64,000 nucleotides of DNA from Callorhinchus milii (Eukaryota): contig NW_024704742.1 of the NCBI RefSeq assembly GCF_018977255.1, positions 78,742,001-78,806,000 on the forward strand, read 5' to 3'. The position numbers and the translations under genes are program-made. The notes under the pieces were generated by a model. That model was not told the DNA's origin, made no database searches, and was given only the letters and a program-made list of their open reading frames with translations. Shown here in pieces: positions 21,401 through 64,000 of this stretch (its first letter is position 1; each line of letters begins with the position of its first letter).

Positions 21401-21696
21401 ATACACTACACTGTACACAGAGCCCAGTGAGTGATAATAATACACTACACTGCACACAGAGCCCAGTGAGTGATAATACACTACACTGTACACAGAGCCC
21501 AGTGAGAGATAATACACTACACTGTACACAGAGCCCAGTGAGAGATAATACACTACACTGTACACAGAGCCCAGTGAGTGATAATAATACACTACACTGT
21601 ACACAGAGCCCAGTGAGTGATAATACACTACACTGTACACAGAGCCCAGTGAGTGATAATAATACACTACACTGTACACACAGGCCAGTGAGTGAG
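18401..21696. repeat. 36/39-bp minisatellite (~85-90 copies) at the start of HMG20 intron 1
   Basis: Unit AGCCCAGTGAG(T/A)GAT(AAT)1-2ACACTACACTG(T/C)ACACAG. Confidence 0.98.
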
Positions 21697-29085: not shown

Positions 29086-29777
29086 AAATCGTTACACTTG
29101 TTCTGGAGCCTTTCGCTTTGGGAGGATGTCACAGGATGCACTGTAAAGTGCAGAGACTGCATGTTTTGTGGATTAATGCAGCAGCCAATTTGATACAGCA
29201 ATATCCTACAAACAACTATGAAGTGTGTGACCAATCTTATTTGGATCAAAACACCAGGAGAAACTTGAGTAGTGGCATGGGATCTTTAACATCCACCTCA
29301 AAAGGAAAATCGAACCTTGGTTTATCATCTCATCTGAAGGCCAGTACCTGCAACAGTATAGCAAACCCCCAGCACCACATTGGAGTGTCACCTTAGACTA
29401 CATGAGTTCCAAGTCCCAACATGGGGCTTAAAACCATGACTTTCTGACTCACACACAAAATGATCACCGCTGACGTACTGAATGATCACTGCTGATTTCT
29501 AAAAAATACTGAGCTTGTGTGATCAGTGAGATAGATACTGCAGTAGGCACCGTGTTTGCAATGAAGAGGGATTTGATCAAATCCAATACCAACTTAAATT
29601 TATATAGCGCTCCTCACTACTTGAAACCTATTCTAATACCCACAATAATTCCCCAACTTTGTAAGCAGTGGAGTTTTTGTGTCATATAACTGTAAATTAT
29701 ATTGTATTGCTAACTGTTCTTAGAGGAAGCATTTCATACCAATTAATCCAAATATGCCCTTTCATTTTAATCTGCAG

Positions 29778-29984
29778 CGTGGGACCAAGAAGAGAGGTTG
29801 GCCAAAAGGAAAAAAACGCAAAAAGAATATACCCAATGGCCCGAAAGCCCCACTGACTGGATACATGCGATTCTTAAATGAACGGCGTGAACAATTACGA
29901 GCACAACATCCACATTTATCTTCTCCCGAAATCACTAAGATGCTGGGAAGTGAATGGAGCAAGCTCCCACCTGAAGAAAAGCAG
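29778..29984 (+). CDS. HMG20B: HMG20 family HMG-box exon ([69 protein letters not shown])
   Basis: Characteristic HMG20/BRAF35 basic region and HMG box. Acceptor ctgcAG, donor CAG|GTTTGT, 207 nt, phase 0/0. Confidence 0.95.
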
Positions 29985-30482
29985 GTTTGTGTCTTTAATG
30001 TAACTGGGAAAGTGCATTGTGCTGCCCAGCAGAAGTGTTTAAAGTTGATTCAGGTCTGTTGTTTGTATTACTGGCTGTATGTCTCCCTCTCATTTTCTGT
30101 GAAGCGCTTTGAGAAGTCTAGAAGAGTGATAAAACGTTATATCAAATGCAAGGATTATTATAAGTGCTTTATTCCACTTGTCCCTTTCCATCTCATTTTT
30201 ATTCTTCCTATTGAGGAGAGATGAATTTGTTTACGTTTCTTGCACCATTTTGCTTTAATTCGCTGTGTGACTGATCTAGAATGTAAATTTGGTTTGAGCA
30301 GATTTATTTTTCTAATCTGTATTGCTGTTTTTGCTTCTGCCTCTGGTCTCTGAAGCTGAGCATTGTGCTTTTAGCTGCTCTTAGATTTAAAACAAGAAGT
30401 CAACAATTTGTGTTGCTTGCAGTCTTTGACCTCCACATATTTGTGATTTTTTTTTAACTTTTCAATTTGTCTACCTTTGAAG

Positions 30483-34183: not shown

Positions 34184-34414
34184 TCAATTTAATGGTTCTA
34201 AACTAACTGGAACTGGAGTAGGCTATTTAGCCAGCCTTATTACTGGAACAAAAAAAATATTCTATCCCTAATACATGCAATAAAATAAATTTCCTGTGCA
34301 TATGTCCTCTTTGATGAATTTAACGTGAAATAAGCTGTATAAATGTAAATTTGTTGTCAACATAGAAGATGTTGTTGACTTTAGAATGAGATGATAAAAT
34401 ATTTTGTTTTGCAG

Positions 34415-34630
34415 CTCAAGAAGCAGAGCTGAGAAAGTTACGAAAAGCTAACATTGAGTATGAAGAGCAGAATGCGGTCCTACAGAAGCACATTGACAAC
34501 ATGAAAAGTGCCAAGGAAAAGCTGGAGGAAGAGTTGTCGGAAGAGCAAAACCAAAATTCAGCTATCCAGAAGCATCTCGAGAGTTTACGGCAGATGCTAA
34601 CATCTAGCTTGGCTAATGTCTCTCTTCCAG
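34415..34630 (+). CDS. HMG20B: HMG20 family coiled-coil exon (AQEAELRKLRKANIEYEEQNAVLQKHIDNMKSAKEKLEEEL...LTSSLANVSLPG)
   Basis: EAELRxLRKxN.E.EEQNAVLQKH coiled-coil motif. 216 nt, phase 1/1, canonical splice sites. Confidence 0.94.
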
Positions 34631-35931
34631 GTCAGAAATAAAGATGTACAGTTTGTAAAACTGCCCTCCCAATGAACACGGACTGCATGTAACTTAGAAA
34701 ATATCAACAAGCTGGGATTCATTGGTCTCATTAATTATATAGACCTTGAGCAGAAATCTTGATTGGCTTAGTCGGCAGCATTTGTTTGGCCCTCGTGCAG
34801 ACAATTGTGGGTTCAAGCGGTTTATCGGGTCTTGAGTTCACAGCCTTGGCTGACACTCCAGAGTCCTGCTGTGGGTAATGCAGCATTGATGGAAATGTCA
34901 TTGTTTGGATGCCAGGTTCTGTCTGAATGTTTCTTAAGGTGGATATTAAAGATCTCATATCACTGTTCAAAATGAAAAGAGAGTTTCTCCTGGTGGTCTG
35001 GCCAACAAGACTCCAGATAGGTTTGTAGTATAATAATAATAATCCTTGCATTTGATATAGTGCTTTATCAGGTCTTTGAGTTGTTTCAAAGCGCTTCACA
35101 GAATATACTTTAAAGTGAATTAACTGTATATTTTGTGGATGAAAATGTTGACAGTTTCCATCATAACTCTTTGATGGGACATTACAAAAAATGACTGGTG
35201 CATTTATCTTTAAAAACGCAATAGCTCTTTATGTCCTGTGGTGTTTTTTCTGAACGCTTTTCAACTCCACACTCTTTATGGCCACTTTCTACAAATACTA
35301 AATTTGACTAGTTTTCAATCCCACTGATTTTTTTTTTTTCGTAACAACAGTTTTTGATATGATGATCTAACATGTTGATGTGAAAAAATTACAAAAAGAT
35401 AGCAAAGAAATTCTGGAAAATGCTTGGAACAAGTCATAAGGAATGAATTTATAAATCTCGGGTGGAAGTGCCACGTATAACATCTTCTGCAAATGTTTCA
35501 CAAACCATAGTTTAATACTAGTGTGCTTTACTGCAGCCCATACAATCTACCCAAAGAAAAACACAATAAAATTTGTCAGGTGGTGGGTCCTGGACTCAGA
35601 ACTCATGTTCTGACACTGTAACATAGTTCTGGGGGTGTGCTGCATTGCTGGAGGTGCTGTACTTTGAATAAGATGTTAAACTGACCCAATCTGTTGAAGT
35701 GGATGATAAAGATCCCATGTTACTATTCATAAAGAGGAGAGTTTTCTCCGCTCCTTCCCAACAATCTCTCAAAAAAATTGCTCATTTGCTTCATGACTGT
35801 TTGCAGTACATTGTTGTGCGCAAATTGGGTGCATTTGAGACATCCTCCTGATGTGAAAGGTGCTATATTCAATGTAAAGACTGTTATTATACAAACATCA
35901 TCTCACCTTTTATCTTTTCTAAATCTCTCAG

Positions 35932-45969: not shown

Positions 45970-47336
45970 AAAGGACAGTAGATTTTATGACCAGTTAAAT
46001 AATCACAAACCCTCTGCTCCTCCAAGTCCTACCAAAGAATCAGACTGGCTGGCCTGTCATTCACAGTGTTCTGGAGTACTGTGGACCCACATGGCTCAGA
46101 AACCAGACTACCGTGACCGCCACAGAGGGTTGACCTGATAAACATCTGTTGCAAGCCTATCACTTTGAGTCAGTTCAGTTCCAAGGAGACCCCACTTACT
46201 GCCGCCCCCCCCGCCCACCCCACCCCACACACCCAGGAGCATTGTCACTAGTCGGTCATTTGACATCTGACAAAAGCAAGTTTGAGCTCTCACTCGGTGG
46301 ATACCAGGTACCAAGAACTCTGCGAGCTTCCTGATCAGCAGGGAAAGTACGAGAGGATTGCCACCATCCTGCCCACAGCTCGAAGACAATCCATTGATTG
46401 AGTGATGGTTCTATCATTTGGAGGTGAGGGAAATTGTTTCCTAAACTTCCATTGGCGTGCACTAAAAGCTCATTAAAACTCATTGCGGGTGAACTATGGA
46501 AAAGAAGGTTCATTATATTTCAGGGCACTGATGAACATGTGATTAGATGAATAATATAGGAATGGTTGTAAATGTTAATGTCCTTTTGGATAATTCCATT
46601 AACTAGGTTAATTTCTAATCTTTAAGCAAGATAAGATGCAACAGTAAATGTTAAATATTTGACAATTAGAATTATATTGAAAGATACTTAGAATCAATTC
46701 TTTACAAGCAAAAATATGAACTGCAATACTATGTCAATATATCTCCTTTGGAGTGAAAAGGCATTTGGTGCACATCAAGAACTGACCAGAGAGGGGTGAA
46801 CAGCTTTCTGTGTAGAGTGTCTGCTGCAGCAAAGGAATCAATGATCGGTGGGGGGGTATCTAATTATTTCTGCCTCTGTTGAGCAGGACAGCACAAATTC
46901 AACCTTTGGGGCTGACTTAATTCAACTCAGTGAAGCACTAACCCTGGCATTTCAAGTATTGACATCTTTAGATTAAGTTTTGTACGGAATTACACAGAAT
47001 GATATGGTACAGAAACAGGACAATTGGCGCAACTCATCCATGCCAGTGTTTATAATCCATATGAATCGCCATCCCTCCTAATCCCCTATCCCATACTCCT
47101 CTATTCCTTTCTCCCTCTTGCATGCTAAAGGATAATAATTTTGAATTGCTAAGGGGTAATGATTTTGAACTAGAGGGCAATGTTTTTGAATTTGTAAGGG
47201 GCACTGAATTTGAATTTTGCTGCACATGCCAGGATGAGTGTTGTGTATGTAATATCAGGATTATTTTAATATGCATTTTAACTTTTCAGGATTATTTAAA
47301 AACAAATACGATTTGGTGCATGCGTGAAAAAAATCC

Positions 47337-47342
47337 TTTATT
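47337..47342 (-). terminator. Probable polyadenylation signal of the laminin-alpha-like gene
   Basis: AATAAA on - strand ~175 nt past the stop codon. Confidence 0.5.
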
Positions 47343-47517
47343 TGCATATTATTATTATACTATTACTCCTGTGTACACAGAGGGATAGGACATCCTACAG
47401 AAAAAAGACTCACTCCATGAATGAAGCAAAATGAGATCAGTCTGTCACGTAAAAATCACTATTGTAATCCATTTTAAGATGTTGACCAGTGTTCCTACAA
47501 ATCTAACACCCGCTAGT

Positions 47518-47648
47518 CTAACTGGGACATCCTCTGGAGACATTGATTCTTTCTAAAGAACCAGAAAGAAATGAAGTTTCCTTTCCGTTAATAAACATGG
47601 ATAATATGCATCCGGTGAAGCCACGGCTTTTTGCTGGACTATGCTGAC
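47518..47648 (-). CDS. Laminin-alpha-like terminal exon (QHSPAKSRGFTGCILSMFINGKETSFLSGSLERINVSRGCPS*)
   Basis: FTGCI...V..GCP-stop is the typical laminin-alpha C-terminus. Acceptor tgtcttttcAG. Confidence 0.92.
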
Positions 47649-48089
47649 CTGAAAAGACAAAGAAATGTATTGTGAAGTGTACATTGTGCTTCCCCCTTGG
47701 TTCATCACCCACAGGCATTGGATCAACTTTTTGCTGTTCATATTTGTGCTGATAACACACAACTTTCTACCTCCCTCCCTCCACCTTCAACTCTAGGACC
47801 ATTGCTGTCTTGACATCAAATCATTGCTCTTAACATCTGAATGTTAAGATAAATTAAACCATCCTGTTTTGGCTCCGGCCAATTTCTGCCACCCTCTGGC
47901 TTCAATATTAACCTCCCTCAAGTGCTGCTCATTCCTGCTTATGGAGCCACTCAGCAATCTTGGTGTTTTGTTTTACCGTCTGGTTTCTTTTAAACTGTAT
48001 GTCCCAGTGACTTGGGATGTCCTCCTGACGTGAAAAGCACTACACAAACATAATTTGTATCGTATTGTACTTTGGGTAACTCCTTTCCA

Positions 48090-48510
48090 GATGTCAGACT
48101 GGTAGCACTTTCTGCTCTGAGTCATGTGTTGTGGGTTCAAGCCCCACTTCGGGACTTTGAACAAACAGTCTAGGTTGATACTCCAACACCATGCTGGGGG
48201 AGTATTGTATCGTTGTCGGTTTTGTACTTTGCATGAGAATTAAACTGAGGCCGTCTGCCTGTTTAAGTGGATGTTAAAGTTCCCATGACAGTAGTCAAAA
48301 AGAGTAGGGAGTTTCTCCCAATTTTATGGCCAACATTTCCCCCAAATAAAATCGGTCATTCCCCTCAATAGCTATTCTGGAACGTTGCTATGTGCAAAAT
48401 AGCAGTTACATTGTGTAGAAAATACAACTTTACAGTAAATAATATGAAGTGCTTTGAGACAACCTGCTGTCATGAAAGGTGCTGCATGAAACAGAAGAAT
48501 TAGTTACAAT
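48090..48510 (+). mobile_element. Older Deu-type SINE (different tRNA head); similar decayed copies at ~1185, 7280, 8470, 9290, 29080, 32650, 34790, 35580, 38205 and 52195
   Basis: Shared blocks TGGTAGCAC...TCTGAGTCA...GGTTCAAGCCCCAC, ATGAGATGTTAAACTGAGG and GATCCCATGGCACTATT. Confidence 0.7.
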
Positions 48511-49520
48511 ATCTGTCTGCTTTGCTGCCTCCTTCATCCATGACATGTCTACCCTCTGGAATTCTCTTCCTTAAATGTTTTCATCGTGCTTTATTTTTCT
48601 CTGCTTTCAAAGTCCACCTAAAGTATTATCTTTTCAAATCAACATTGTTGACGCTCCCTGCTCGGTGCTCCCCAATCTATTTCATTGCTCATCACGAATA
48701 ATGCAGGATCCTTAGGAGGGTAATATTTTCACAAGCTGCCAGATATGACTGGTAATATTGATTTATAACAGTATTGTTCCATTGTAAGCATGCATCAAAA
48801 GCACCTTGCATGTAGCTAGAGACAATCATCTTATTCCTCTAGACTGGATATAAGCCTTGTTACATGAGCTTGGCTCTTTTAGTCGCACAAGGTTGTGAGC
48901 TCATAATCTGTGCTGACACTTATAATAATAATCCTTGCAGCAAGGATTATTATTATTATTATTATTATTATCACATCTTCAAGACATCTAAAACTCTTCA
49001 CAAAATATACAGTAAAGTGAATTGACTAAATTTGTGGGCGAAATGAGGCAGCTAGTTGCGCACAGCAGTGTCCCACAAACAGATGTTGATTGAGTGGCCA
49101 AATTATTATTTTTTTTGAAGGCGTTATTACCCCCAAAAAGCAATCTGCCAACTGAGATATTAAACTATTTGCCTGTCTTGCTTATTCAGAACTTTCAAGT
49201 CGTATTGCATGATACTAATTGAAAGAAAAGGGAATTTCTTCCGGTGTCCGGGTCAACAATCCACCAGAGAAAAAAAATCCCTCAAATCATAACTGTGAGA
49301 CCACCTGCATACAAAGTGGTTGCCATGTTGCTTAGAAAACCAGTCACTACACTTAACTGTAATTACTGTAAAGCACTTTGAGACTCTCTGATATGATAAG
49401 GCGCTATGAAATTGCTAGTTTTCTTTCCTGAAAAGATATGCTGACCGATCCTACCAACTTGTCCCATGTTCTCCCCGTTATGGAAACCATTAAAATGTTA
49501 AGAGCGTTTTGTTTTATTAC

Positions 49521-49749
49521 CTGGTGCTCCACCAAAATACACATCCATGTCCATTATTTCTTTGAAGAAAGCCGCAGGCATGGGTGAGGCTAGCAGAATA
49601 CTTGTATCCACACGTATCTCAAGCCCCACATTTTCAAGCAGTCGGACCTCAATGCTGTGAGGCTTGTTGTCACAGATCCTGTATGGGTTGAGCAGTGAGA
49701 ATTTGATCTCGGGAAGTGGACTGAGATTGTAAGACATGCTGACAGCAAT
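49521..49749 (-). CDS. Laminin-alpha-like LG5 exon (IAVSMSYNL...ICDNKPHSIEVR...MDVYFGGAP)
   Basis: ICD..H.I and VYFGG.P motifs of laminin LG5. 229 nt, phase 0 to 1. Confidence 0.9.
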
Positions 49750-51698
49750 CTGTGTGGAAATAAACAGGCAAGTTACAAATTGTGACAACCTCACTAAGCA
49801 AAAGCATTCATTCGGTAATTGTAGAACTAATAATAACAACTATGTTATAGTACGGATGTTATGTGAACTGTGATTGGTTCGGATGAAGAAGCCCTTCGGT
49901 CCATTTGCTCTTATCCTTCCAGAATACTCACCCTCCCTTCTTCCATCACAGTGTCAAGCTGATTCCTAAATTAATGCCTTACCCAACCTACCTGACAACC
50001 TGCTCCAGTCATTAATTAAGAAATATTTAAATGAACGTTGCCTTTACTTGCCAGTGGTTAACAGATGTGGGCAATTCTGACATGCACTTAATGATTAGAT
50101 AGGCTAGGGCTCTTCAGTCTTAAAGGAAGACAAATCAGAGGGGACTAAATAGAGATGCATAAAATGTTAAATGGGATTGAAAAAGCCACTGGCAGCATTT
50201 TAAAAAAACAGCTTGACGCTTTGATGTGAGAACAGTAAGATAGATATTCCGAAGCGATAAGATCTGTTGGGCCGAAGGGCTTATTCATCTAAACTAATCT
50301 TGTAATCTTGTGAGGTCTTAAGTACCTGAGCTGCAACCATGTTAGTGTGAGCCTTCTTCTTTACCCATTGATCATCGATAACATATATTACCCCAGAGGA
50401 TGCTCACTCCATAACTCTCTCACCCTTGGAACTGCACTCCAGTATACAGAGGTGAGGGGCAGAAGCATATACCATTGGGGAGAAAATTAGCAAATAAATG
50501 GACAAAACTAAAAACAAATAAACAGTTTTCAGCCAATGGGGCCATAAATCAGTAAAGTTTGACTTGGTCGAACTATCAGAGTGACACATTAATTACACAC
50601 TGCAATTCAACCTACATTTAGATAGCACTGTTTACATTGGGAGGACATTGCAAGTTTCTTAACAATAATGATTTGGGATCCGAGTAGGGAGTGGGAGTTG
50701 AGAGAAAGGGAGTGGAAGATCAAAAGGAAGTTTTCATGCTTTTCTGCTGCCCCCAGAAATGCAGAGTGGAAGATGAGATGAATTACTGTCAGCATAGGTA
50801 CTTTTGCTTTAGAAATATTCAAGCACTCCAGGTTTCTATCATATTATGCCTAGTATTACTATCAAGTATTACTCCTTCAACTAATGAAAAGGTCATAACT
50901 CACTTCCTATAGCGAAGACTATGTTGAAAGAAAACATCTTGTTTTCCTCCATTACCTTTTCTTTGTTTTTAAGAGGTTGTATTTGCTCTGTACTGTATTA
51001 GCTACTATGACAAACCCAAACATATTTCTGTATACTCCGATCTTCCTCATATGTCTTGCTTTCTAATTAATAACATATAAAAGTCCCTTTCATCTATTGT
51101 TGTATCTCACAACAGAAGAGGGGTTCTCCCAGTGTCCTAGTCAACAGTCCTCCAGTTAAGTTAGTCATTTCACTTCATGGTTCCATTTTGGACATTACGA
51201 TGTATAAATGGCTAGTGTGATGATCTATAAATGAAGTCAATACACTTACCAGCAATTCACTGTCAAGCTCTTTGGGGCATTAGGAGGTCTATATTCAAAT
51301 GCAAAGACTATTATGACATTATTATTATCATCCATCTGCAGTAGCTGCCGGTTGATTATCACAGTATAACCTGCCCTTCAGTGAGGAAGCACCTAGCCTC
51401 CAATCTGTGCTGCCTTCCAATGACACATCTAAGACCAGACACTTGCCATATAGGAAACTGGAAATGTCATACTGTGTTCTATACAACAGCATTCCAACTA
51501 GTGCACTATCAGCACACCACTACTCATTTAACTTAACAAAAGTTTGTAACTTTTTTTAAACTCCATTTCTTCACCATGTGTGCTGTACACATCAATGCTG
51601 TAAGTAGCCTTAGCTTGCATACTTGTCTGTTTTTGTTAATAGTAAGCAAATATGCCATTGTTATAAATTGTGCTAAGCTCTGGCTAGCAGGTTCTCAC

Positions 51699-51826
51699 CT
51701 GTCCTTCCTGGAATCCTACTGACAGTTCTTTGTCACTAGAGGGCTCCAACAACTGCAGAAGTAAACCACTTCTTTGATGAGTTTTAATGGAGAGAGAAAT
51801 AGTAACATCATTGGCAGCAAATTTCC
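51699..51826 (-). CDS. Laminin-alpha-like LG5 exon (KFAANDVTISLSIKTHQRSGLLLQLLEPSSDKELSVGFQEGQ)
   Basis: I.L.IKT....GLLL LamG motif. 128 nt, phase 1 to 0, donor CAG|GTGAGA. Confidence 0.9.
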
Positions 51827-52569
51827 CTGCAAGACAAAATTGGCGTCCGCACATCAGTATACTAGTGAAAGAAATCACAATGGACCACATGTTCCTCTCC
51901 TATTAAAACCAGATTCATATCTTAATATGTAAGGGGCAGCTGAAACCATCAGACTGTCCCTTGAATTGTTTCCAATGTAGCCATCACTGGGGACACAATA
52001 GCCCCTTTTTTATATCTAGCTTTACTTTTCCTTAACCCTGATGCTGTTTGACTGCTTTTCTTCTGAGGTAAGGTTCCATTGGTGGAAGTCTCTCTCCAGT
52101 ATTTCGAACATTTGTCAGTGTTAGCAGACTATTCAAATGAGGCGGCATTGGGGTGGGGGTATGGCAATATACTCTCATTGTCTGCTGATGCTGAGGCCAA
52201 TTGCTCCACACCAGGATGTTGAACTGATAATCTAGACTGCCATTGTGTTCAGCACTTGGGCAGTGTTGCATTGTCAGATGAGATGTAAAACCAAGATCCT
52301 GTCTGCTTGTTCAAGTGAACATCAACAATCCCTTGACACAATTGGAAACAAAAAGGTAATTTCTCCCAGTCTCTTAGCCAACAGACAAATTGGTCATTCA
52401 CCTTATGACTGTTTGTGAAGCTTCCTGCGTACACATTGATCTACAAATCCACAGTCACTACATAAAACAGCAATTACCTGTGAAGTGCTCTGGGATGTTT
52501 TCATCTGCTAAGATATTATAGAAATCCAAATAGTTTATTTCCCTACTGCAGTGCAACAAAAAAAATTAC

Positions 52570-52658
52570 CTAAATGGATGTATCCATGGCCCTGGAAAAA
52601 AGCACCTTCAGTTACTGCAGTAAAACAAGGCCCTGTTCCCACTGCTACCTCTGAGGTC
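52570..52658 (-). CDS. Laminin-alpha-like LG4/LG5 junction exon (TSEVAVGTGPCFTAVTEGAFFQGHGYIHL)
   Basis: C-x5-EG-x-F-F-x-G-x-G-Y junction typical of laminin alpha chains. 89 nt, phase 2 to 1. Confidence 0.9.
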
Positions 52659-53288
52659 CTGAAAATATAATAAACAGTAAAGATAATTAAAAATAGTTTT
52701 CTTGTGCTGGGTTTTATCACTAACATTTTAAGGACATCTTTATTGGGCTGTCTCAAAACTTCTTGGGTGTTGGTGATATCATTGTTAGTTGCCAGCTCAG
52801 TTGGTAGCACTCATGCCTCTGAGTTAGAAGATTATGGGTTCATAAGGAGGTCACAGAGTTTGGTGTGGGAGAGGACACGGGCTGCAGAGTTCTGGATTAT
52901 CTGCAGCCTGTGGAGGGAGGAGTTAGGAAGGCCGACAAGCAGAGTGTTTTCATAGTTGAGCCTGAGGTGATGAAGGCATGAACAAGAGTTTCAGCGGCCT
53001 GAGGGGTGAGGTAGTGGCGGAGTCGGGCAAGCACTGGTGTGATTTGCCCTCCAATAGTCTGCCCAAGTGAGTGATAAGAGATTATTGGCCAGCTATTTCA
53101 CTATGCATACTTTCATAGCCAAGTACAATCCTGCCCTCACCTGAAATTCACACGAATGGGAGAGGGAGCAGGTAGGGGGGTTAACTCGTAATTGTAAAAG
53201 AATTAACAACAACAAGAACTTGCATTTAAGTAGCGCCCTTCATGCCAGGTGACATCTCGGAGTGCTTGAATTAAGTGTTAAAACTTAC

Positions 53289-53371
53289 AATAGAAGGAAG
53301 TTCACTGCTGGAATGTCTTGATTCGCACTGATTTCCAGCTTCTGAATACATCCCTGGAATCCACTTGGTAA
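53289..53371 (-). CDS. Laminin-alpha-like LG4 exon (LPSGFQGCIQKLEISANQDIPAVNFLL)
   Basis: FQGCI LamG motif. 83 nt, phase 0 to 2, donor GTAAGT. Confidence 0.87.
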
Positions 53372-53959
53372 CTAATAAGCATATAAGTTAAAAATGACTA
53401 TATCAATAGTTACAGTTATATCAAATTATTACTGGGTCAGAAGGTTGTCTGTTCAAGACCCACTTCTGGATTTGAGTTAAAGTCATACTCTCGTTCAGTA
53501 CTGGCGAGTGATACATTGAGTGATATGATATGCCATCTTTCACTGTTCTGAGCAATCTCACATTGCTCTTTCAGTATAGCAGGGGCATTAGAGTAGCTGG
53601 TTCACCATTTGTACCAGCATTTTCTGATCAGTAACATGTTGTTATGCTAGATATAGATATTCTGAAATTTTAATTTGAAAAACTTTGGTGGGGTTAAGAA
53701 GAAAGTGAAAAAAAAGTGTTCTATATGAAGAAAGCACATTATTTGTGGCTGGTGAAAGGAAGAGGATTAATAGAAATGGTCTTTTCTTGTTCCCTGCTGT
53801 CTTATGTTGGCATCAATTTGCTGTACTCAAGGTAGTTTAGTATATTTGCTGATAATTTAATGAAACCAGCCATTCCTTAATTGTTAAATGGTCCTGTTAA
53901 CTGGTTTCAAATTAACCTTGGTGCTGGCTATGTTTGGTGATCTGAATGCCTATCATTAC

Positions 53960-54139
53960 CTGACAGCCTTGCAGTTGTTGGAATAAATTACGTGGAACAC
54001 CTCCAACATAGAAAGGTGTTATCTGAGATCCTTGCAGCCGGATATAGGTCACCCGTGACGAGCTAGCCTTATTATTGGTGTAATCTCGCCGTTCTGTGTT
54101 CACAATGGCTAGGAAATCATTAATCCTCAACACCAGGAT
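53960..54139 (-). CDS. Laminin-alpha-like LG4 exon (ILVLRINDFLAIVNTERRDY...TPFYVGGVPRNLFQQLQGCQ)
   Basis: FYVGGVP LamG motif. 180 nt, phase 0/0, canonical splice sites. Confidence 0.9.
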
Positions 54140-55209
54140 CTGGGAAGTGATGAGAAAAATATATTAAATCATGAGTTTATGCCCTGTATGTTCTTCAGCA
54201 ATTCACACCTATCTCACCAACAAATCAAAAAGAAAACACCCACCTCTGGGCCAGAAGGTTGAGGGTTCAAGCCCCACTTTAAGACTTTGAGGTCACAGTA
54301 TATTGCTGGATTTTATCTTGGGATTTGGAGCTCACAGACACATGCGGAGTCCCGTAGCATAGTGGTCAGCATGCTTGCCACAGTTCCTCCGGCTCGCCCA
54401 CTCCCTTGCCTCCTTCAAGACCTTCCTCTTACACCGTGCCTTCGGTCACCCTCCTACCCCTACCCTCCACCCCTCCTAATACCAACCACCAGCTCGGGTG
54501 CAGATCCCTGACTGTCCAGTGCCTTGGGACATCCTCCTGACATGAAAGATAGTATACAAATTGAAAATACAAAGAAAAGTGAGAAAACCGGGGTTCGATT
54601 CCCAGGTTCCCCACTGTTTACCTAGCAATAAGTAAGAACCCAGTTGTTAGTCGATTGGCGGATTGTTTTCCAGGAGTAATAGACCCTCCTCCCAAAAAAT
54701 GTGATTATTCAATCCACAATGTATGTGGGACATTGCTGTGCACAATTGACTGCTGCGTTTCACCCACAAATACTCAGTATATTGTATACTGTGAAGCTCT
54801 TTGAGATATCAATATGATGTATATCAAATGCAAGGATTATTATTATTATTGTTGCTGTGCACAAAACTGACTGCCATGTTTGTCTGTAAGTACACAGTTA
54901 CTCCACTTGACAGTAATTTCTTATGTAGCACTTTGAGATGTTTCGATTTTATAGGCCCTATATCAAATGGATGGATTATTTATTCAAACTCCAATAAAAG
55001 GTTTAAATCAAATAAAGGAAATTGCAACACTCTGTAGTAATGACAGTCACAAATAGATGTGAAATCTCATACAAAAGAAAAATCCCTAAAATTGCTGATT
55101 GTGATCGATTCTATTGGCAACAACTTTATTTGTTTGTTATTACTAGAAAAAGTGCAGTCAAAATTGGATAAAATCTGATAGTATACTTACATTTTTATTT
55201 TACGATTCT

Positions 55210-56030
55210 ATGGAGAGGTCAGAGTGCAAGTGGGAGGGAGCGTTGAAATGGTAAGAAACTGGAAGCTTAGGGTTGTGCTTGCGGATAGAACAGAGATGTT
55301 CAGCAAATCGATCGCCCAATCTGTGTTTTGTCTCCCCAATGTAGAGGAGACCACATCGTGAGCAGCGAATGCAGTGAACTACATTGGTGGTAATGCACGT
55401 AAATCACTGTCTCACTTGAAATCTGTGTTTGAGGCCCTGGATAGTAGTGTGGGAGGAGGTGAAAGGACAGGTATTCCACCTCCTGCGCTGGCATGTGAAA
55501 GTGCCGGGGGAAGGAGAGCAACTGTTGGTGGTGATGGAGGAATGAACCAGGGAGTCATTGGAGAGAAAGGTCCCTTCGGAATGCTGAGAAGGGAGGGGAG
55601 GGAACAACAAAAACAACTTGGATTTATATAGCGCCCTCCACGCCGGACGGCGTCTCAGAGTGCTTAGAGGGAAAGATATGCTTAGTGGTTGGATCATGCT
55701 GGAGGTGCCAGAAATGGCAGAGAATTATTTTTTGGATGTTGAGGCTGGTGGGTTGGAAGGTGAGGACTAGGGGACCCCATCACGGTTCTGTGAAGAGGGG
55801 TAAAGGGTGAGGGCAGAGTTGCGGGAAATAGGGCAGACACGGTCAAGGGCCCTGCCTACCACAGTGGATAAGCATCCTCAGTTGAGGAAAAAGGAAGACG
55901 TTTCAGCTGCTCTGGTGTGAAAGGTGGCATCGTCAGAGCAGACGCAGCAGAGGCAGAGAAACTGGGAAAAGGGAACGGAATCTTTACAGGAGATGAAGTG
56001 GGAGGAGGTGTAGTACAGGTAACTGTGGGG
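55210..56030 (-). mobile_element. Penelope-like element fragment with GIY-YIG endonuclease remnant
   Basis: Minus strand reads ...CITTNVVHCIRCSRCGLLYIGETKHRLGDRFAEH. A short L2-type tail is inserted at ~55603-55667. Confidence 0.85.
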
Positions 56031-56159
56031 ATAATAATCCTTGCATTTGATACAGAGCCTTATATATTTGAGATGTCACAAAGCACTTCACAGGATTTAC
56101 TGCAAAGTGGTGTATCTGTGTGTGCGAGAATGCTGGAGTACTTGCTGTAAGACCATTAG

Positions 56160-56582
56160 ATTACCAGTCCTTGCCAGGCTCCGCTGGCTCCCAATTACCG
56201 AATGGATCGATTTCAAGATCCTCACTCTCGTTTTCAAATCCCTTCATGCCCTCACACCTCCCTACCCATCCGATCTGCTTACCACCCACTCCATCTCCGC
56301 TCAGCTGGCTCCAGCCTCCAGTCCCTCGTCCCTTCCGCTCCACCATTAGTGGCGGTGCCTTCAGCCACTACATCCCGAAACTCTGGAACTCTCCCTCAAT
56401 CCCTTCTGCCCTGCCCCCTTCCTCACCTTTCAAATCCCACCTAAAGACCTTCCTTTTTGATCATGATTACGGTCCCCTCCCCCCCTCTCCCCCTTGTCAG
56501 AGTCAGACTCCCCCACTGTCAAGCGCTCTGGGACGCTACCCCACGTGAAGGGCACTACATAAGTGCAAGTTTTGTTGTTGTA
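56160..56582 (+). mobile_element. L2 3' fragment
   Basis: PVLARLRWLPITEWIDFKILTLVFKSLH plus (GTT)n tail. Confidence 0.88.
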
Positions 56583-56712
56583 ATGAAACAGAATTCCTGT
56601 GGAACACTGATTTTTCAGGCAAGTTCCTCTGAAAACCCGACAAGCAAGTCTACAGGTAGTAAATTGATACAGAAAGCACCTGTTGGTTGTTTGGTGGTTG
56701 CATTGCACTCAC

Positions 56713-56926
56713 CTCCCACCACTGTCCATTGTTATAGCGGAATTTGGTAATAATACTCAACACAGTGAAAGTCTGAGCATCCGCCTTTTCTGTCGAAACT
56801 TTAAACTCGATGTAACCATCAACCAAATAGAGGGCAACGTAAGCCCGAGGATCAGTCAAAGAGTCAGCCACAAAACACAGGATGCCATCTGCTGCGTGTG
56901 TTCGGAACTTCATCGAAATAATGAAA
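56713..56926 (-). CDS. Laminin-alpha-like LG4 exon (FIISMKFRTHAADGILCFVADSLTDPRAYVALYLVDGYIEF...YNNGQWWE)
   Basis: LamG motifs FRT...DGIL, YVALYLVDG and NGQW. 214 nt, phase 2 to 0, donor GAG|GTGAGT. Confidence 0.92.
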
Positions 56927-57547
56927 CTAAGAGAAAAAAAACTAAAGTCATTAAAAACATTATCAAGAATCATCCATCAAGTTGGGTTTGATGTTTATCT
57001 ACCAGATGGTCTAACAATACTGTGCTTGCAGCCAAAGTGACCCATTAATGAGGACAGATGTTTTATAGATAGCGTTAATGATTGCTGAGAGTATAGAAAC
57101 ATCTGGAGAAATTGTGCATGTGGTGCCTAAAGATTTTGAAGATCTATTCTAGGCTGACATAAATGGTTTAGCAGGTGGTGTTCACTCTGCATTTGAACTT
57201 ATTCAAACAAGAAACAGAGCACTGTAGGGATGAGGTACCGTGAGGGAAAGTTCATGCAGATGATTTTGGATTGATGTAGAATTTTGTTCACATCTTCCTG
57301 ATTGAGAAGACTGAACTGTAGACTAGGATATTCCATAACACATTAAAATAATAATAATCCTTATATTTGATATAGTGCTTTACCAATTCTTTGAGACGTT
57401 TCAAAGCCCTTCACAGAATAAAGTGAATTGACTTCTTATATATTTTATGGACGAAAAGCTAAATATGTTAGCTACAGGCTTTGTAGGATAGTGTCAGCCT
57501 GGCTCAGCTGGTAGCATTCTCGCTTCTGAGTCAGAAGGTTGTAGGTT

Positions 57548-58812
57548 AGGAACATAGGAACTGAAGGAGGCCATTCAACCCTTCGAGCCTGTTCTACCAT
57601 TTAATTAGATCATGGCTGACCTGTACCTCAACTAATCCTTTCAATTCCAATTCCCGCTTTCTTCCCATATCCCTTAATACCCTAACCCAAAAATCTACCA
57701 ACCTCACTCTTGAAGGTGTGGATGGATCCAACATCCACGGTCTTTTGGGGGAGAATTCCAGATTTCTACCACCCTTTGAGTGAAAAAATGCTTCCTGATT
57801 TCACTCTTAAATGGCCTGGTTCTAATATTAAGACTATGCCCCTTGTTTTGGATTCCCCCACCAGAGGAAATAGCTTCTCCGTATGGACCCTATCAAATCC
57901 CTCCATCATCTTAAATACCTCAATCAAATCACCCCTCAACCTTCTAAACTCAAGGGAATACAATCTAAGTTTACACAGCCTTTCCTCATAACTTAACCCT
58001 TTTAGCCCTGGTAACATTCTGGTGAACCTGCGCTGCACCCCTCCAGGGCCAATATATCTTTCCTGAGTGTGGTACCCAAAACTGAATGCAGTACTCCAGA
58101 TGGGGTCTGACTAATGCTCTATACAGCTGAAGCATCATTTCTTCCCCTTTGTATTCCAGGCCTCTTGAGATAAGGCCTCTTTGCAAGCGAGAGACCCGAG
58201 TTCAATTCCAGGCAGGGCGAAACCTTGGGCAAGTTTCCTTACTCCACACAGAGCCTAATAATAATCCCTCCAAAACAAAAACAATAAATTGGTCATTTTC
58301 AATCTGTGACTGTTTGTGGGACATTGCTGTGCGCAATTGGCTGCCGCGTTCGCCCACAAATATACAGTCAATTCACTTTACAGTATATTCTGTGAAGCGC
58401 TTTGGGATGTCTAGAAGATGTGAAAAGCGCTATATTAAATGCAAGGATTATTATTATTTTTATTATAAAGGCAAACATTCCATTCACCTTTTTGATTACC
58501 TTTTGCAGCTGGGAACTAGTTTTTAGTGATTTGTGGAATCCCTTTGCTCCTCCACAGTTTTTAATTTCTCCCCATTAAGAAAATATTCTGCTTTATTTTT
58601 TTCGGTCCATAGTGGATGACCTCATACTTCCCTGCATTGAATTCCATCTGTCACAGCTTTGTCCACACACTTAATCTGTCTAAGTTCCTTTGTAACTTCC
58701 TACTCCCATCTACACAATTTACTGAGCCTCCTAGCTTAATGTCGTCTGCAAATTTGGATAGAAAACCTTCTATTCCTTCATCCAAGTCATTTATATATAT
58801 GGTGAACAGCTG
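57548..58812 (-). mobile_element. CR1 3' ~1 kb, interrupted by a SINE
   Basis: SKFADD, LYRALVRPHLEYCIQFW, QRRFTRMLPGLKGLSYEERL...RGDLIEVFK and a (TTCCTATG)-type tail. Confidence 0.92.
58177..58466 (+). mobile_element. Short-subfamily SINE inserted in CR1
   Basis: Family body flanked by ATAAGGC and ATAAAGGC, a possible target-site duplication. Confidence 0.9.
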
Positions 58813-60372
58813 ATGTTCAAGCCCCAAATTGGGATTTGGAACTCACGTAATCTAAGATGAGACTGCAATAGTATGCTGCATTGTTAGAGGTTCCATCCTT
58901 TGGATGAGACATTAAAACAAGATCACATCTGTCTGAAGACCCCATTGTACTATTCAGAAAGGGAAAGGAGTATCCTATGGTGTCCTGGTCAACAGTCACC
59001 CAATAAAATTAGTCAATAAATTATATCTAGACCCAGGTGGAATTTCTACCCACACAAGTTGTAATTTTAACCTCGTGATTTCCTTAAAGTACTTTATAAG
59101 AATTGTTTTCTCTGATGCATTTTTTATCACCATTGCCAGTGTTTCCATTTCCCTTGAGGGGACAGGCCAATCTGAAAGCATTCCTCGGATATTTGGCCTT
59201 GGGCTCGAAGGGAGATTTACTAATGTCATTTGCTGGTTTTGCAATCAATGGATAGAACAAACATAGGAATGAATGCCCTTTTATGTTCAATGCACCTGTA
59301 GCTCAGATTATTGTTATTCATGAGATCTATTTTCATAATCATACAGTGATAAAATACAGATATAAGCTTAAATGCATTTATTTATGATGATTAACCATAA
59401 TGTGCAAATCTAACCTGATTTCCTTCCAATGAGTCTTTGATCTATGTAAAAAAAACAGCTATCTTCCTTAGCTCGTTACTTTGGAAAGGATTTTTTAAAA
59501 AAACCTCATTACTTTGGAAAGGATTTTTAAAAAAGCCACAAACATAGTTGACAAGGAACATTTTGATCTATTTGATCAATGCAAAATGAGTCTGTTACAA
59601 ATTGTGAAGGGGTTCAGATGTTTGAAAGCCTAAAGCAGTCATGTTTTGAATAAATGTGTTCAAAAATACATTTTCGTTCTTTGATTCTGTGCAAAACCTG
59701 ATAAATATTTATCTGCCAAAGGGTGAAATATGGATCAAAGAGAATCTAGCTCCTTCAAATGGATGGATAATACAATGGGAATATTACACTAATGATAGTA
59801 AATTAAAGGCTGAAACGTGCACTATGTGACTTTTCATCTCTCACCTCTATTTGTGATATCATTGTGACTATTTTGGCTGTTTATGATCAGGTGAGAAGAA
59901 CATTAAGCTGAAAAAATCACCAGTGGTGTGTAATCCAGTGTTGTTACTGAAACACAAGTTCTTTGCAAATTTCAAAATATTGTTCTTCCAAAGAGGTGAC
60001 CGGATTAGAAGAGCAGAACCATAGAAAATGATAGTCCAGAAGGCCATTCGGACCATTATGTCTATGCTTGCTCCTTTAAAGAGCATTTCTATCAGTCCAT
60101 TTACCTGGCCTTTTCCCATACACCTGTAGTTTCCTCCTTTTAGATATGAATCTAGTTTTCTTTGAAAGCTAATATGGATACTGCTTAAACTACCAACCTC
60201 AGTAGGGCATTCCATATCCTAACTGGTGTGCATGAAAATAGTTCCCCTAACCTCCCCATTTGTCCATTTGCTACTTACCTTAAATTGAAGCCCTCCAGTC
60301 ATTGATCAAAATATATCTACTAAAACCTTCTTTTTTTTTTGACATTTACTTGGTCATTTGTTTGTCACATAC

Positions 60373-60612
60373 CTGGATAAAAGATGCCTCTGCAATGTGG
60401 CGTCTACATGGTACTGCAGAAAGCTTTCGTAGTTCAGCCCCATTTGGACTCCAGCTGGATCAATGAGGAGGTCCAAAGGAGAACAGCTTGATGTATGAGG
60501 AAGGAGCGAGACAATCGGGAGTGGAGCTGCCTGGGTGGGAGGAGGTGAAACGCCAGCTGAGGAGATGCTCCGTGCGGACATTAAAATAGATGGCTTGTAG
60601 TAATCCACAAAT
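60373..60612 (-). CDS. Laminin-alpha-like LG3-LG4 hinge and start of LG4 (FVDYYKPS...SPPPTQAAPLP...SCSPLDLLIDPAGVQMGLNYESFLQYHVDATLQRHLLS)
   Basis: 240 nt, phase 2/2, donor CAG|GTATGT. Pro-rich hinge followed by a C...GxQxGL...S pattern like the start of LAMA1/2 LG4. Confidence 0.85.
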
Positions 60613-61045
60613 CTGTTACAAACACAAGAGTCATGGAGATATTGTAGACTAGGAAGCAGCGGACAGGAAAATAAGTGGGTATTGTATAAGATGTTCAGAT
60701 GAGATGTTAAACTGAGGATCTATCTGCCTGTTTAGGTTTATGTTAAAATTTCATGGAACTATTTGAAAATAAAAAGGAGTCTCTCCAGGTGTCTGCCCCC
60801 CAAATAAAATTTGACATTTTTGACTTTTTGGCTATTTGTGGAACATTGTTTTGGCAAATTGACTCTCACACTTTCCTACAACAAGAAACACTACACTTGA
60901 CAGTATATCCTGTGAAGTGCTTTAAGATATTCTCCTAATGTGAAATAGGTATATCAAATGTAAGGATTAGTAGTATTATTCAATCATATATGCCTGAAAT
61001 TTTTAGTAATATTTGTAATTCATATTAATCTGTTTGCACATTGAT

Positions 61046-61283
61046 GGATAGAATTTCCACTGGCCTAGATTTACTCTATTAATGTAACATTTCAGAGGGT
61101 CCAGAAATTGTCAATTTCTTTAAAAAAAAGTCTTTAACTTTGAAGCCAGGTTTCTGTAAAGTTCTCTTAAGAACCACATAAAATGGATTTCAAAGTAAAA
61201 GCTGAAGTTAATAATTTGTCAATTCTGCACATTGAAACATGCTGCATTTAATAGAGAAATCTCGACCCAGGTGAAATTCCATC
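61046..61283. mobile_element. Palindromic MITE-like element; second copy at 63186-63760 (split by a SINE), partial copy at ~10183-10300
   Basis: Long imperfect terminal inverted repeats (GATAGAATTTCC...AGATTTACTCTATTAA / TTAATAGAGAAATCT...GAAATTCCATC) and shared interior AGTCTTTAA.TTTGAAGCC...TTTCTGTAA.GTTCT.TTAAGAAC. Confidence 0.7.
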
Positions 61284-62194
61284 ACATACATTGTTTGCAT
61301 AAGGTGTTGGAATTGATTTATTTACTCTTTGTAATAGGGTAGACTTGGCTCTTTCCCATGAGGTTATAACAGATTGCTTCAACCATCAAAACATGCTGAG
61401 CATGCAACCTTTCCATATGGCAACAGAAATATCCATGTTGTAAACAACAAAACCAGCTTGTTACACTGCAAGTCATCTTTACGAGGAGGTGATTTAACAA
61501 GTATTTAATAGGAGTAAGTATACAAACAGGTGCTAGCAAAGGTTGAAGGGTTACACTTGAAGGATGGGTACTTGGTGAAGGTCTCAACAGGTACCTACAT
61601 AGGCACCAGTCAATGCCTGAACTGGTAGAATGGAGAGACACTGACTGGAAGGTGATTACTAAATATTCGTAATACAGGTAGATTTGTTTATTATCATTGA
61701 TTAAATATCAGGCTGCTGGATGAAAACTGTCAGATTAGGGCTATGACATTGAAGATATTTTTACGAATGAAACACAATGGACGGAGATGATAATAATAAT
61801 AATAATCCTTGCATTTCATATAGTGCCTTATCTGTACTCTGTACCTCTGTTCCCCATCCTTTTCAAACTTGATTGGCTTCAATCCCTTCATCTTGGCCCC
61901 TCTCTTCTTATTTTCAGGTTGTGCTTGATGACCTTCCTCTTTGACCTTGCCTACAGTCACCTTTCCCCTCCCCCTGGCTCGGCATCAAGCTCTGCCATTG
62001 TTAAGTGTTTGGCGTCTGGCGTGAAGGTCTTTATATAAATGCAAGTTGTTATTGAGACATGTCAACAAGCTTCACTTGATATACTGTAAAGTGTATTGAC
62101 TGTGTATTTTGTGGGTGAAACTAATTCAGATATTAAGCATTGTGAGAGGATAACTGTACCCAAAGCCACAGATCACAAGAGAGGTTCAGATGAA

Positions 62195-63040
62195 AAACAA
62201 CAACAAAATTACATTTGTATAGCGCCTTTCATGTCGGGTGGACATGCCAAGGCACTGGCCACTCAGTGTTTTGGACCCGGGCTGGGAGGATAGAGGGTAG
62301 GGGGGAAGGAGGGTGACTGAAGGTACGGTTGAAGAGGAAGGTCTTGAGATGGGTCTTGAAGGAGGCAAGGGAGGAGGCATGCGGAGGGTCTGCAGGATGG
62401 AGTTCCAGAGGGTGAGGGTAGAGTGGCAGATGGTCCGCCCGCCAATGATGGGACAGACGAGCCAGGGGAGGTGAGGCAGGCCGGAGTCCCTGAGAGGAGG
62501 GAGGGGGCAGGTTGGTAGGGGTTTAGGAGGTTGCAGTGGTAGGGGGAAGCAAGACCATGGAGGGCTTTGAAGGTGAGGACCAGGATCTTGAACTGTATCT
62601 TCTGTGTAATGGGAAGCCAGTGGAGTTGGGCGAGGATGGGGGTGATAGGGTCGTAGAGCCTGGTTTCGAGAGTGGACATGGACTGCAAAGTTCTGGTTGA
62701 TCTGCAGCTTATGGAGGGAAGCATTGGGGAGGCCGACAAGCAGGGAGTTTCTGTAGTCAAGCCTGAATGTTATGAATGCGTGTATGAGGTATTGAAGGCA
62801 GCAGAGAGGTCAAGGAGGATAAGGAAGCAGAGGGAACCCTGGTCGCAGATGGACAAAATGTCGTTTGTCACTTTGACCAAAGCTGCTTCTGTGCTGTGGG
62901 CGGCACGGAAACCCGGTTGAAGGGGTTCGTGAAGGGAGTTGCGGGAGAAGAAAGAGCAAAGCTGGGAAGCAATGGCTTTTTCCAAGACCTTGGAAAGGAA
63001 AGGGAGGTTGGAGATGGGACAGTAGTTGGAGAAAGTCTTT
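62195..63040 (-). mobile_element. L2 fragment including part of the RT domain, internally deleted
   Basis: QPGFRAAHSTEAALVKVTND...LILLDLSAAFNT joined directly to the LHWLPITQKIQFK region. Confidence 0.9.
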
Positions 63041-63405
63041 CAACTCATTTGATCACTTCCTTCCAGAACACCCATCCTACTATCCTCCCATTACAGTATC
63101 CAGCTCAAAAGAGACCAACGTCCTGGGCTCAACCATCCTTCTTGGTGACCTATTCTTCTTGCAGTAGAGCCCTATCATACCTATAGGGTAAAATTCTACC
63201 CTAGTGTAGATTTAACTTATTATCAGAACACTTCAGAGCATCTAGAATTTCTCAAATCTGTATTTAAATACAGTCTTTAATTTTGAAGCCGTTTTTCTGT
63301 AAGTTCTTTTAAGAACTTTTGAAGAACCGTTCTGAAAGTTTAAAAATGAATTCAACAAGTTGGCAAATTCTGAGCACTCTGAAATGTGACTTTAATAGAG
63401 TAAAT

Positions 63406-63724
63406 ATAATAATAATAATAATCCTTGCATTTGATATAGCGCTTTTCACGTCGGGAGGACATCCCAAAGCGCTTCATAGAACACATTGTAAAGTGAATTG
63501 ACTGTATATTTGTGAGCGAACGCGGCAGCCAATTGCGCGAAGCAATGTCCCACAAACAGTCATGGATTGAAAATGACCAATTTATTATTGTTTTGTTTTT
63601 TTGGAGGGATTATTATTAGGAGTGTGGAGTAAGGAAACTTGCCCAAGGTTTCGCCCTGCCTGGAATTGAACTCAAGTCTCTCACTTGCAAAGCGAGTGCT
63701 CTAACCACTGAGCTACAGGACTCC
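63406..63724 (-). mobile_element. Full-length short-subfamily SINE
   Basis: Near-identical to 28148-28457 in reverse complement. Confidence 0.92.
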
Positions 63725-63878
63725 ACAGGTGAAAATATGGTCCCAAGTGAAATTTTACCCATCGTCATTGCATAGCTTGACTCTATAATGTTTGTGTTTT
63801 AAGGTTTGTCAGATAGTGTAATCATCCTCATCTGCATCTCTTGTTTTTTCAGACCTAAGTGTCTGAGATGGGACTTAC

Positions 63879-64000
63879 TTTGAGTTAATCTTGATTTCCC
63901 TGATATCACCTTTGAAAGATTCAGTGCCAGGGAATCGGTGGTCTGATCCAATCACACGTATGATGTCAGCACTGCCACCTCCAACAAAGGCAAAGAGTCC
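63879..64000 (-). CDS. Laminin-alpha-like gene, end of LG3 (GLFAFVGGGSADIIRVIGSDHRFPGTESFKGDIREIKINS), truncated by the window edge
   Basis: LamG-type FVGG and F.G.I..I.IN motifs. Donor AA|GTAAGT in phase 2 joins the exon starting at 60612. Confidence 0.8.

Follow-up and report, generated by a model that had tools for sequence, protein, structure and literature searches.

Is the laminin-like gene that closes a 64,000-nucleotide stretch of the Callorhinchus milii genome a divergent copy of a known vertebrate alpha chain, a remnant, or a type of alpha chain of its own? The stretch, called the window below, covers positions 78,742,001 to 78,806,000 of contig NW_024704742.1 (C1) in NCBI RefSeq assembly GCF_018977255.1; a C1 position equals 78,742,000 plus the window coordinate, and coordinates past base 64000 are marked "continued". 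The initial annotation had read the gene as a highly diverged extra alpha chain, possibly of the LAMA1/LAMA2 lineage. For the LG3-5 protein the first half of this proposal is right and the second wrong, because the tree and the approximately unbiased (AU) test place it in a separate clade that we label T3, set apart from alpha1/2 (LAMA1, LAMA2, wing blister) and alpha3/5 (LAMA3-5, LanA). We know of no published name for T3. We suggest, with a probability of about 70%, that the window holds the 3' part of an intact, spliced and transcribed laminin alpha-type gene of this ancient third subfamily.

The LG1-5 tail and its transcript

The laminin alpha-like gene lies on the minus strand. Its nine in-window exons (64000..47518) all have an AG acceptor and a GT donor in compatible phases, and the spliced frame leads through the end of LG3, a Pro-rich hinge, LG4 and LG5 to a stop, its translation ending in ...SRGCPS*. 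The minus-strand stop-to-stop frames of 47518-64000 contain the peptides quoted in the initial annotation, whose nine in-phase exons from the end of LG3 to GCPS* are borne out by the splice sites, the phases, the open frame and the splicing seen in run X1. The exons and the untranslated region are as follows.

63879..64000 (true start 64082, past the window end), minus strand: exon with the last LG3 strands, ending ...KINS plus 2 bases; AG/GT sites, phase, X1 junction to 60612
60373..60612, minus strand: exon of 240 nt, LG3 end in which the usual closing cysteine is missing, then the Pro-rich hinge and the opening strand of LG4; covered exactly by X1 record 6, splice sites
56713..56926, minus strand: exon of 214 nt, LG4 core FIISMKFRT...GQWWE; Pfam Laminin_G_2 E 1.3e-7 on the open reading frame (ORF) alone, X1 record 5 ends at the donor
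53960..54139, minus strand: exon of 180 nt, LG4, bearing the clade signature ILVLRINDFLAIVNTERRDYTNN; clade profile 36 bits, splice sites
53289..53371, minus strand: small exon of 83 nt, LG4 'FQGCIQKL' strand; splice sites, phase, part of gene model P0001
52570..52658, minus strand: exon of 89 nt, end of LG4 (GTGPC) and start of LG5 (EGAFFQGHGYIHLG); splice sites, phase
51699..51826, minus strand: exon of 128 nt, LG5; splice sites, phase
49521..49749, minus strand: exon of 229 nt, LG5 core, ending ...VYFGGAPG plus 1 base; Pfam Laminin_G_2 E 1.2e-4 on the ORF, X1 record 1
47518..47648, minus strand: last coding exon, end of LG5 FTGCILSM...SRGCPS, stop at 47520-47518; splice sites, phase, X1 record 1
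47318..47517, minus strand: 3' untranslated region of at least 200 nt; X1 record 1 extends to 47318

Exons end where they had been placed from the sequence, at INS(K), at GQWWE, before the GCI strand and after GGAPG, and there is no intron within the hinge (exon 60373..60612). Two details are to be corrected: the GCI strand sits in the small 83-nt exon 53371-53289, and the RNA-like contigs splice to the acceptor at 60612 instead of the higher-scoring 60648. The best exon match to the clade profile is 56713..56926 (69 bits), and the signature in exon 53960..54139 is common to clade members only. Two of the eight open stretches reach Pfam Laminin_G when scanned singly; the 563-aa gene model P0001 from the protein collection, which shares the window junctions, has three Laminin_G stretches (E 1.5e-39).

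Transcription and splicing are seen in run X1, which is RNA only by guess, none of the runs containing the stretch being recorded as RNA. Its contigs are spliced 63879|60612 (record 6, which extends 410 nt further upstream of 63879) and 49521|47648 (record 1), and record 5 stops exactly at donor 56713; altogether, three junctions and an additional donor are confirmed by spliced contigs of this RNA-like kind. Those from run X2, which is DNA-like, run colinear with the genome. Large parts of the gene's introns consist of a repeat of ~290 bp resembling a short interspersed element (SINE), found at window 63409-63694 and in dozens of copies across 304 kb at 77-97% identity, and copies of this repeat dominate the read depth in every run examined.

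Beyond the window, a T3 profile built from five full-length relatives located further exons on the same strand.

continued 156807-157013, 147626-147805, 146401-146598 and 142282-142518, minus strand: LG1 exons (T3 profile)
continued 119351-119683, 80083-79917 and 76259-76136, minus strand: LG2 exons (T3 profile)
continued 70442-70299 and 69011-68857, minus strand: exons of the LG3 start (T3 profile)

Joined, the 18 AG/GT exons give a 2967-nt frame of 988 codons plus a stop, with no internal stop, and the resulting complete 988-aa LG1-5 module aligns as a single piece to T3 profile positions 1944-2936 (563 bits, E 4e-173). It has the five tandem C-terminal LG domains of a laminin alpha chain. 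The earlier suggestion of an LG-only protein is therefore not supported as stated, since upstream sequence encodes LG1, LG2 and the first part of LG3 and, farther away, an LN/LE short arm that matches; a transcript limited to the LG tail may exist. Integrity and expression are shown for the LG1-5 tail, and the full-length gene may be intact as well.

The upstream junctions have support from elsewhere in the genome. An intronless copy of three consecutive exons (parents at continued 76134-76261, 70294-70444 and 68857-69012) lies at C10:20,838,088-20,838,512, 94.5-97.4% identical and with a 150-codon open frame, and abuts a SINE-like repeat. This fragment of a processed transcript is independent proof of the junctions between the three parent exons. 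This retrocopy and the true LG3 exon at C1:78812299-78812442 contradict the first exon of P0001 ('MTECVV...', C1:78811858-78812052), the corresponding start of which reaches a predicted local distance difference test score (pLDDT) of 37 in an AlphaFold2 (AF2) model; P0001 is a truncated artefact with a spurious first exon. By eye, the sequence of that exon in the ORF listing is repeat-like.

The assembly repeats part of this region: about 36 kb at continued 82894-119047 occur again at continued 119149-154544 (C1:78824894-78861047 and C1:78861149-78896544) with 99.1-99.4% identity, doubling four exons of the gene, and a run of 30 N falls exactly at the junction of the copies. Most likely, the assembler laid two haplotypes in tandem, and the LG1/LG2 exons were therefore counted once. 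None of 712 exon bases differs between the two copies, where the flanks would predict 3.6 differences (P 0.028); this hints weakly at constraint.

Position among laminin alpha chains

The closest relatives of the window protein are not the vertebrate chains. In an exhaustive HMMER search over 1.84 billion representative proteins, 269 matches were obtained at E<=0.001, only eight of them at E<=1e-30: the window protein itself and seven clusters at 2e-67 to 5e-40 (28-31% identity over LG3-5), after which there is a gap to 2e-28. Six of the seven clusters are named and all six are invertebrate, from the crinoid Anneissia, amphioxus (two), the nemertean Lineus, the hemichordate Ptychodera and Priapulus; the seventh, P0007, is unnamed. 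The amphioxus clusters are a 2797-aa 'uncharacterized' protein and a 585-aa piece whose cluster includes a 3457-aa form. A bryozoan, the annelid Owenia and the snail Lymnaea provide further T3 members. Vertebrate LAMA1 matches the window protein at E 1e-23 or weaker, and the best sequence match with a solved structure is mouse laminin alpha2 LG4-5 (E 1.7e-14).

When the top 150 clusters were tested against 12 references, 15 clusters and five of the references scored better to T3 than to the alpha1/2 or alpha3/5 references; for none of these was the window protein a nearer match than some invertebrate member, and no insect sequence fell in T3. Word-index searches of proteins of 309-986 and 987-2815 residues likewise found no vertebrate relative better than LAMA1 (24-26% identity), proteins longer than 2815 residues being covered by the HMMER search. 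No vertebrate orthologue was found in the protein collections searched.

The phylogeny was inferred from the C-terminal 640 residues of 40 proteins (673 columns; IQ-TREE, LG+C20+F+G4) and is unrooted. The window row consists of the LG3a exon followed by P0001 residues 14-563; row P0049 was removed beforehand (terminal branch 5.2), P0055 was relabelled after it grouped with wing blister, and FastTree and quick trees served as first looks only. The T3 clade, which unites the window protein with crinoid, amphioxus, hemichordate and spiralian members, received support of 100/100. An alpha3/5-like group (100/99) holds insect 'Laminin subunit alpha', a hemichordate alpha5-like protein, an octopus laminin alpha and a lamprey protein, while an alpha1/2-like group (94/96) holds teleost LAMA1 and LAMA2, amphioxus and hemichordate alpha2-like proteins and wing blister. 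Forcing the window protein together with all 20 alpha1/2 rows cost 78.1 log-likelihood units (p-AU 8.2e-8), which contradicts the LAMA1/2 lineage originally proposed. Moreover, the amphioxus, hemichordate and crinoid lineages each contribute both a T3 row and an alpha1/2 row (from different species in the last two, the hemichordates adding an alpha5-like row), which argues that T3 is an additional gene rather than a fast-evolving orthologue. Long-branch attraction is argued against by the short branches of T3 (0.38-0.45).

Several characters unite the clade. In LG3, the 'GCI' strand is replaced by GDI in the window protein and by G-D/G/A-I/M/F in the displayed T3 rows, so that LG3 lacks its disulfide in the window protein and in the five displayed T3 rows, whereas three displayed alpha1/2 rows have it. 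The 'GCI' cysteine and its closing partner, expected of the LAMA1/LAMA2 lineage, are thus missing in LG3, since the exon into which the RNA-like contigs splice does not encode the closing cysteine. Shared by the window protein and the T3 rows are also the LG4 run 'RINDFLAI..E.RDYxNN' (displayed rows), similar wording of the hinge and the terminal GCP. The initial annotation had compared the spacing at the LG4 start and the LG4/5 junction with LAMA1/2; the resemblance was found, but the junction spacing is common to T3 as well. The nine T3 rows other than its own are near-invariant at 77 columns; 62 of these (81%) are conserved in the window protein, compared with 60-92% in other members.

The predicted fold is that of a laminin. 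The AF2 model, made from a 26-row alignment, has a mean pLDDT of 81, with 86-96 in LG4 and less than 50 in the LG3/LG4 linker (residues 163-182), and Foldseek returned the laminin alpha2 and alpha1 LG4-5 pairs as its best folds (1dyk, E 4.4e-22, TM 0.72 on the target). The model therefore combines the flexible LG3-LG4 linker and the laminin-type LG4-5 pair that characterize a laminin alpha chain. Compared with the vertebrate laminin alpha2/alpha1 LG4-5 structures (PDB 1DYK, 5IK4, 2JD4), the two-domain fold, its pairing and the tandem LG domains after a Pro-rich linker are the same, but identity is only ~20%, the clade is a separate one, and Ala stands at the LG4 position that we take, from a weak alignment, to correspond to the calcium-ligand Asp of LAMA2, a position that varies within T3. 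Drosophila wing blister and LanA, the textbook invertebrate alpha types, are alike in overall laminin alpha architecture; wing blister falls with alpha1/2 and insect 'Laminin subunit alpha' with alpha3/5, both outside T3.

What a whole chain of this type looks like can be read from the invertebrate members. The following are automatically named 'laminin subunit alpha-like' relatives.

XP_033120753.1: crinoid Anneissia, 2901 aa
XP_078587501.1: amphioxus, entered as 'uncharacterized'
XP_070542660.1: hemichordate Ptychodera, 3094 aa
XP_064620727.1: nemertean Lineus
CAH1795786.1: annelid Owenia
XP_014662548.1: Priapulus

They are single chains of 2800-3100 aa with a signal peptide, LN, LE, one Laminin_B, a heptad-rich rod and five LG domains, and we know of no experimental study of any of them. 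The Callorhinchus gene resembles them in its clade, the missing LG3 disulfide, RDYxNN, the hinge, the C-terminal GCP and short-arm exons colinear with the crinoid protein; it differs in that the rod was not found in this genome and its two halves lie 0.85 Mb apart. In five full-length T3 proteins, Pfam detects 6-16 laminin EGF repeats and five LG domains, with one Laminin_B in four of them but not in amphioxus; Laminin_N, Laminin_I and Laminin_II give nothing in P0002, P0003, P0006, P0007 and P0016 even at E<=5. It would be tempting to call these proteins LN-less, an interpretation that we rejected because BLASTP and PDB sequence matches reveal the domain: T3 N-termini align to the LN of LAMA1 and of amphioxus alpha1/2 (31% identity, E 1e-60) and to solved LN structures (laminin alpha1 8dmk_A, E 1.8e-22; netrin-4, E 9e-26). 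Ahead of LG1, a simple heptad scan flags 340-490 residues in four of these five proteins, about as many as in canonical chains (404 and 412). With an LN domain and a heptad-rich rod, the T3 proteins are thus full laminin-alpha-like chains, and the Pfam blanks may be the reason for their erratic automatic names ('GspB-like', 'epi-1', 'alpha-1-like').

The distant short arm and competing explanations

Does the tail in the window belong to such a chain? Building the full gene, as had been advised, succeeded in part, with an LN end and LE exons recovered upstream and no coiled coil found in 147 kb. Searched against the whole genome, residues 463-1502 of the crinoid T3 protein find their best matches in four exons on the minus strand at C1:79,742,860-79,779,012 (best E 3.7e-34, 41% identity), stronger than the matches at the canonical LAMA loci. 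In 30 kb read there, the T3 profile matches ten frames that look like exons and show regular laminin-EGF cysteine patterns; for nine of them, colinear with crinoid residues 429-1497, the best match is a T3 protein, and a search with the crinoid N-terminus added exons up to C1:79,786,705 that encode the end of LN and LE1-2. These LE exons and the LN end make up a T3-type short arm that shares the strand of the LG tail and precedes it, as expected, by 0.85-1.0 Mb. At continued 157-304 kb, the 147 kb upstream of LG1, neither an LE nor a coiled-coil exon was found by local profile, laminin-EGF regular expression, cysteine-richness scan or heptad heuristic, the last giving two chance matches on the minus strand against six on the plus strand; in a genome-wide profile search no Laminin_II match fell within 15 Mb of the window, the nearest being a weak one ~15 Mb off. 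Tail and short arm could be parts of one giant gene, of a split gene or of a mis-assembly.

A number of observations weigh against an intact T3 gene. The window protein sits on a long terminal branch (1.58; median 0.84) of an unrooted tree whose named vertebrate alpha1/2 rows are teleost LAMA1/2 only. RNA read depth is low (~5) in a run guessed to be RNA. The coiled-coil exon is missing from the minus strand in the 147 kb upstream of LG1, other genes, a rearrangement or an assembly error may lie in the unread 844 kb that separate LG1 from the short arm, and the assembly is faulty nearby, where the 36-kb tandem copy abuts the 30-N gap. Also, binding to dystroglycan in the manner of alpha2 is doubtful, given the Ala aligned with the calcium-ligand Asp.

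Much of this would fit a truncated or decaying remnant, in which a rearrangement cut the T3 gene and the LG1-5 tail is transcribed alone or from a foreign first exon, yielding an LG-only secreted protein or no useful protein. The 844-kb interval and the lack of coiled-coil exons in 147 kb, the long branch and the low read depth all point this way, as does the fact that the sole existing model is a 563-aa fragment with its first exon in repeat-like sequence and that the gene was kept in no other vertebrate of the collections searched. We nevertheless regard a remnant as unlikely, though the most serious of the alternatives: all 988 codons in 18 exons are open, conservation at T3-invariant columns is within the family range, the exons are free of the variation found in flanking DNA, the short-arm exons look intact with regular cysteine patterns, and both halves have the same strand and order.

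A fast-diverged extra paralogue of the LAMA1/LAMA2 lineage could account for LAMA2 and LAMA1 LG4-5 being the best solved-structure matches and for the alpha1/2-like spacing at the LG4 start and the LG4/5 junction. We consider it very improbable in view of the full support for T3, the AU rejection of a union with the 20 alpha1/2 rows, E values to T3 of 1e-40 to 1e-67 as opposed to 1e-23 or weaker for vertebrate LAMA1, and the absence of the LG3 disulfide of the alpha1/2 rows; junction spacing, being common to T3 and alpha1/2, does not favor it. Foreign DNA, by invertebrate contamination or horizontal transfer, would explain why the nearest relatives are all invertebrate, but it is scarcely credible for a gene with only ~30% identity to every relative that lies inside a 139-Mb contig, carries in its introns repeat families recurring elsewhere in the window and in the other loci read, and has a retrocopy on another contig. 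Furthermore, four DNA-like runs from the same organism contain 71-76% of the stretch's sampled words.

Other alpha loci, neighbors and implications

The T3 gene is not the genome's only candidate for a laminin alpha chain. A profile search of the genome for Laminin_II and a search with teleost LAMA1 gave the following loci.

C2:115.84 Mb, C2:117.97 Mb, C3:30.54 Mb, C3:35.08 Mb and C18:14.95 Mb: five loci that Laminin_II marks by their own score
C2:115.82-115.90 Mb (up to 80% identity) and C3:30.60-30.69 Mb (up to 76%): two alpha1/2-type loci

Because five Laminin_II loci exist elsewhere, the window gene is a sixth alpha-like locus, which, with an identity of about 20-25% to LAMA1/2, sustains the view of a highly diverged extra gene. 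The two alpha1/2-type loci on C2 and C3 answer the advice to look for LAMA1 and LAMA2 elsewhere in the genome, and the window gene is accordingly not the genome's only alpha1/alpha2 orthologue. At C51:343695-345047, a 774-codon open frame of repeats has many weak Laminin_II matches and is probably a coiled-coil-like repeat protein unrelated to laminin.

Downstream, in convergent orientation, lies a plus-strand HMG-box neighbor.

29724-30221, plus strand: HMG-box exon (Pfam E 3e-14)
34390-34638, plus strand: coiled-coil-like exon of the neighbor gene

That an HMG-box gene adjoins the laminin-like gene agrees with the initial annotation; HMG20 is a candidate identity compatible with the data. 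Two large minisatellite arrays, at 16428-17729 (42 copies of a G-rich 31-bp unit, with a higher order of 247 bp) and 18401-21695 (89 copies of a 36-bp unit), account for the spikes of GC and skew at 16-22 kb.

The LG1-5 globule would be the cell-surface-binding end of a laminin-like chain, and the LN/LE short arm 0.85-1.0 Mb upstream, together with a coiled coil yet to be located, would allow the chain to join beta and gamma chains, an assembly for which the full-length invertebrate T3 proteins appear to be built. On this view the vertebrate would have a sixth alpha chain that arose independently of LAMA1-5, T3 being either lost or unannotated in the other vertebrates of the protein collections.

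The excerpts of Hynes (2012; PMC3308698) on the basement membrane toolkit give bilaterians typically two alpha subunits, from which the five vertebrate alphas descend, and those of a 2023 review of the echinoderm matrix (PMC10381214) count 5-8 laminin genes per class without sorting the alphas. Our full-text literature search found no description of a third alpha type, although Fahey and Degnan (2012; Mol Biol Evol 29:1823) may bear on the point. We speculate, at even odds, that bilaterians ancestrally had three alpha types and that the third was lost from flies, nematodes and nearly all vertebrates, with a working gene here; on this hypothesis those very losses explain how it escaped study.

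A third type in both deuterostomes and protostomes changes the count of the two-alpha toolkit. For annotation, the present 563-aa model is to be corrected as a fragment with a spurious first exon. If the intact T3 gene is real, Callorhinchus milii would possess a sixth alpha chain unrelated to the LAMA1-5 expansions, possibly forming laminin trimers of a kind unknown in vertebrates, and a vertebrate that expresses it would offer a tractable system in which to identify its beta/gamma partners, the receptors of the LG tail and the tissue in which it acts.

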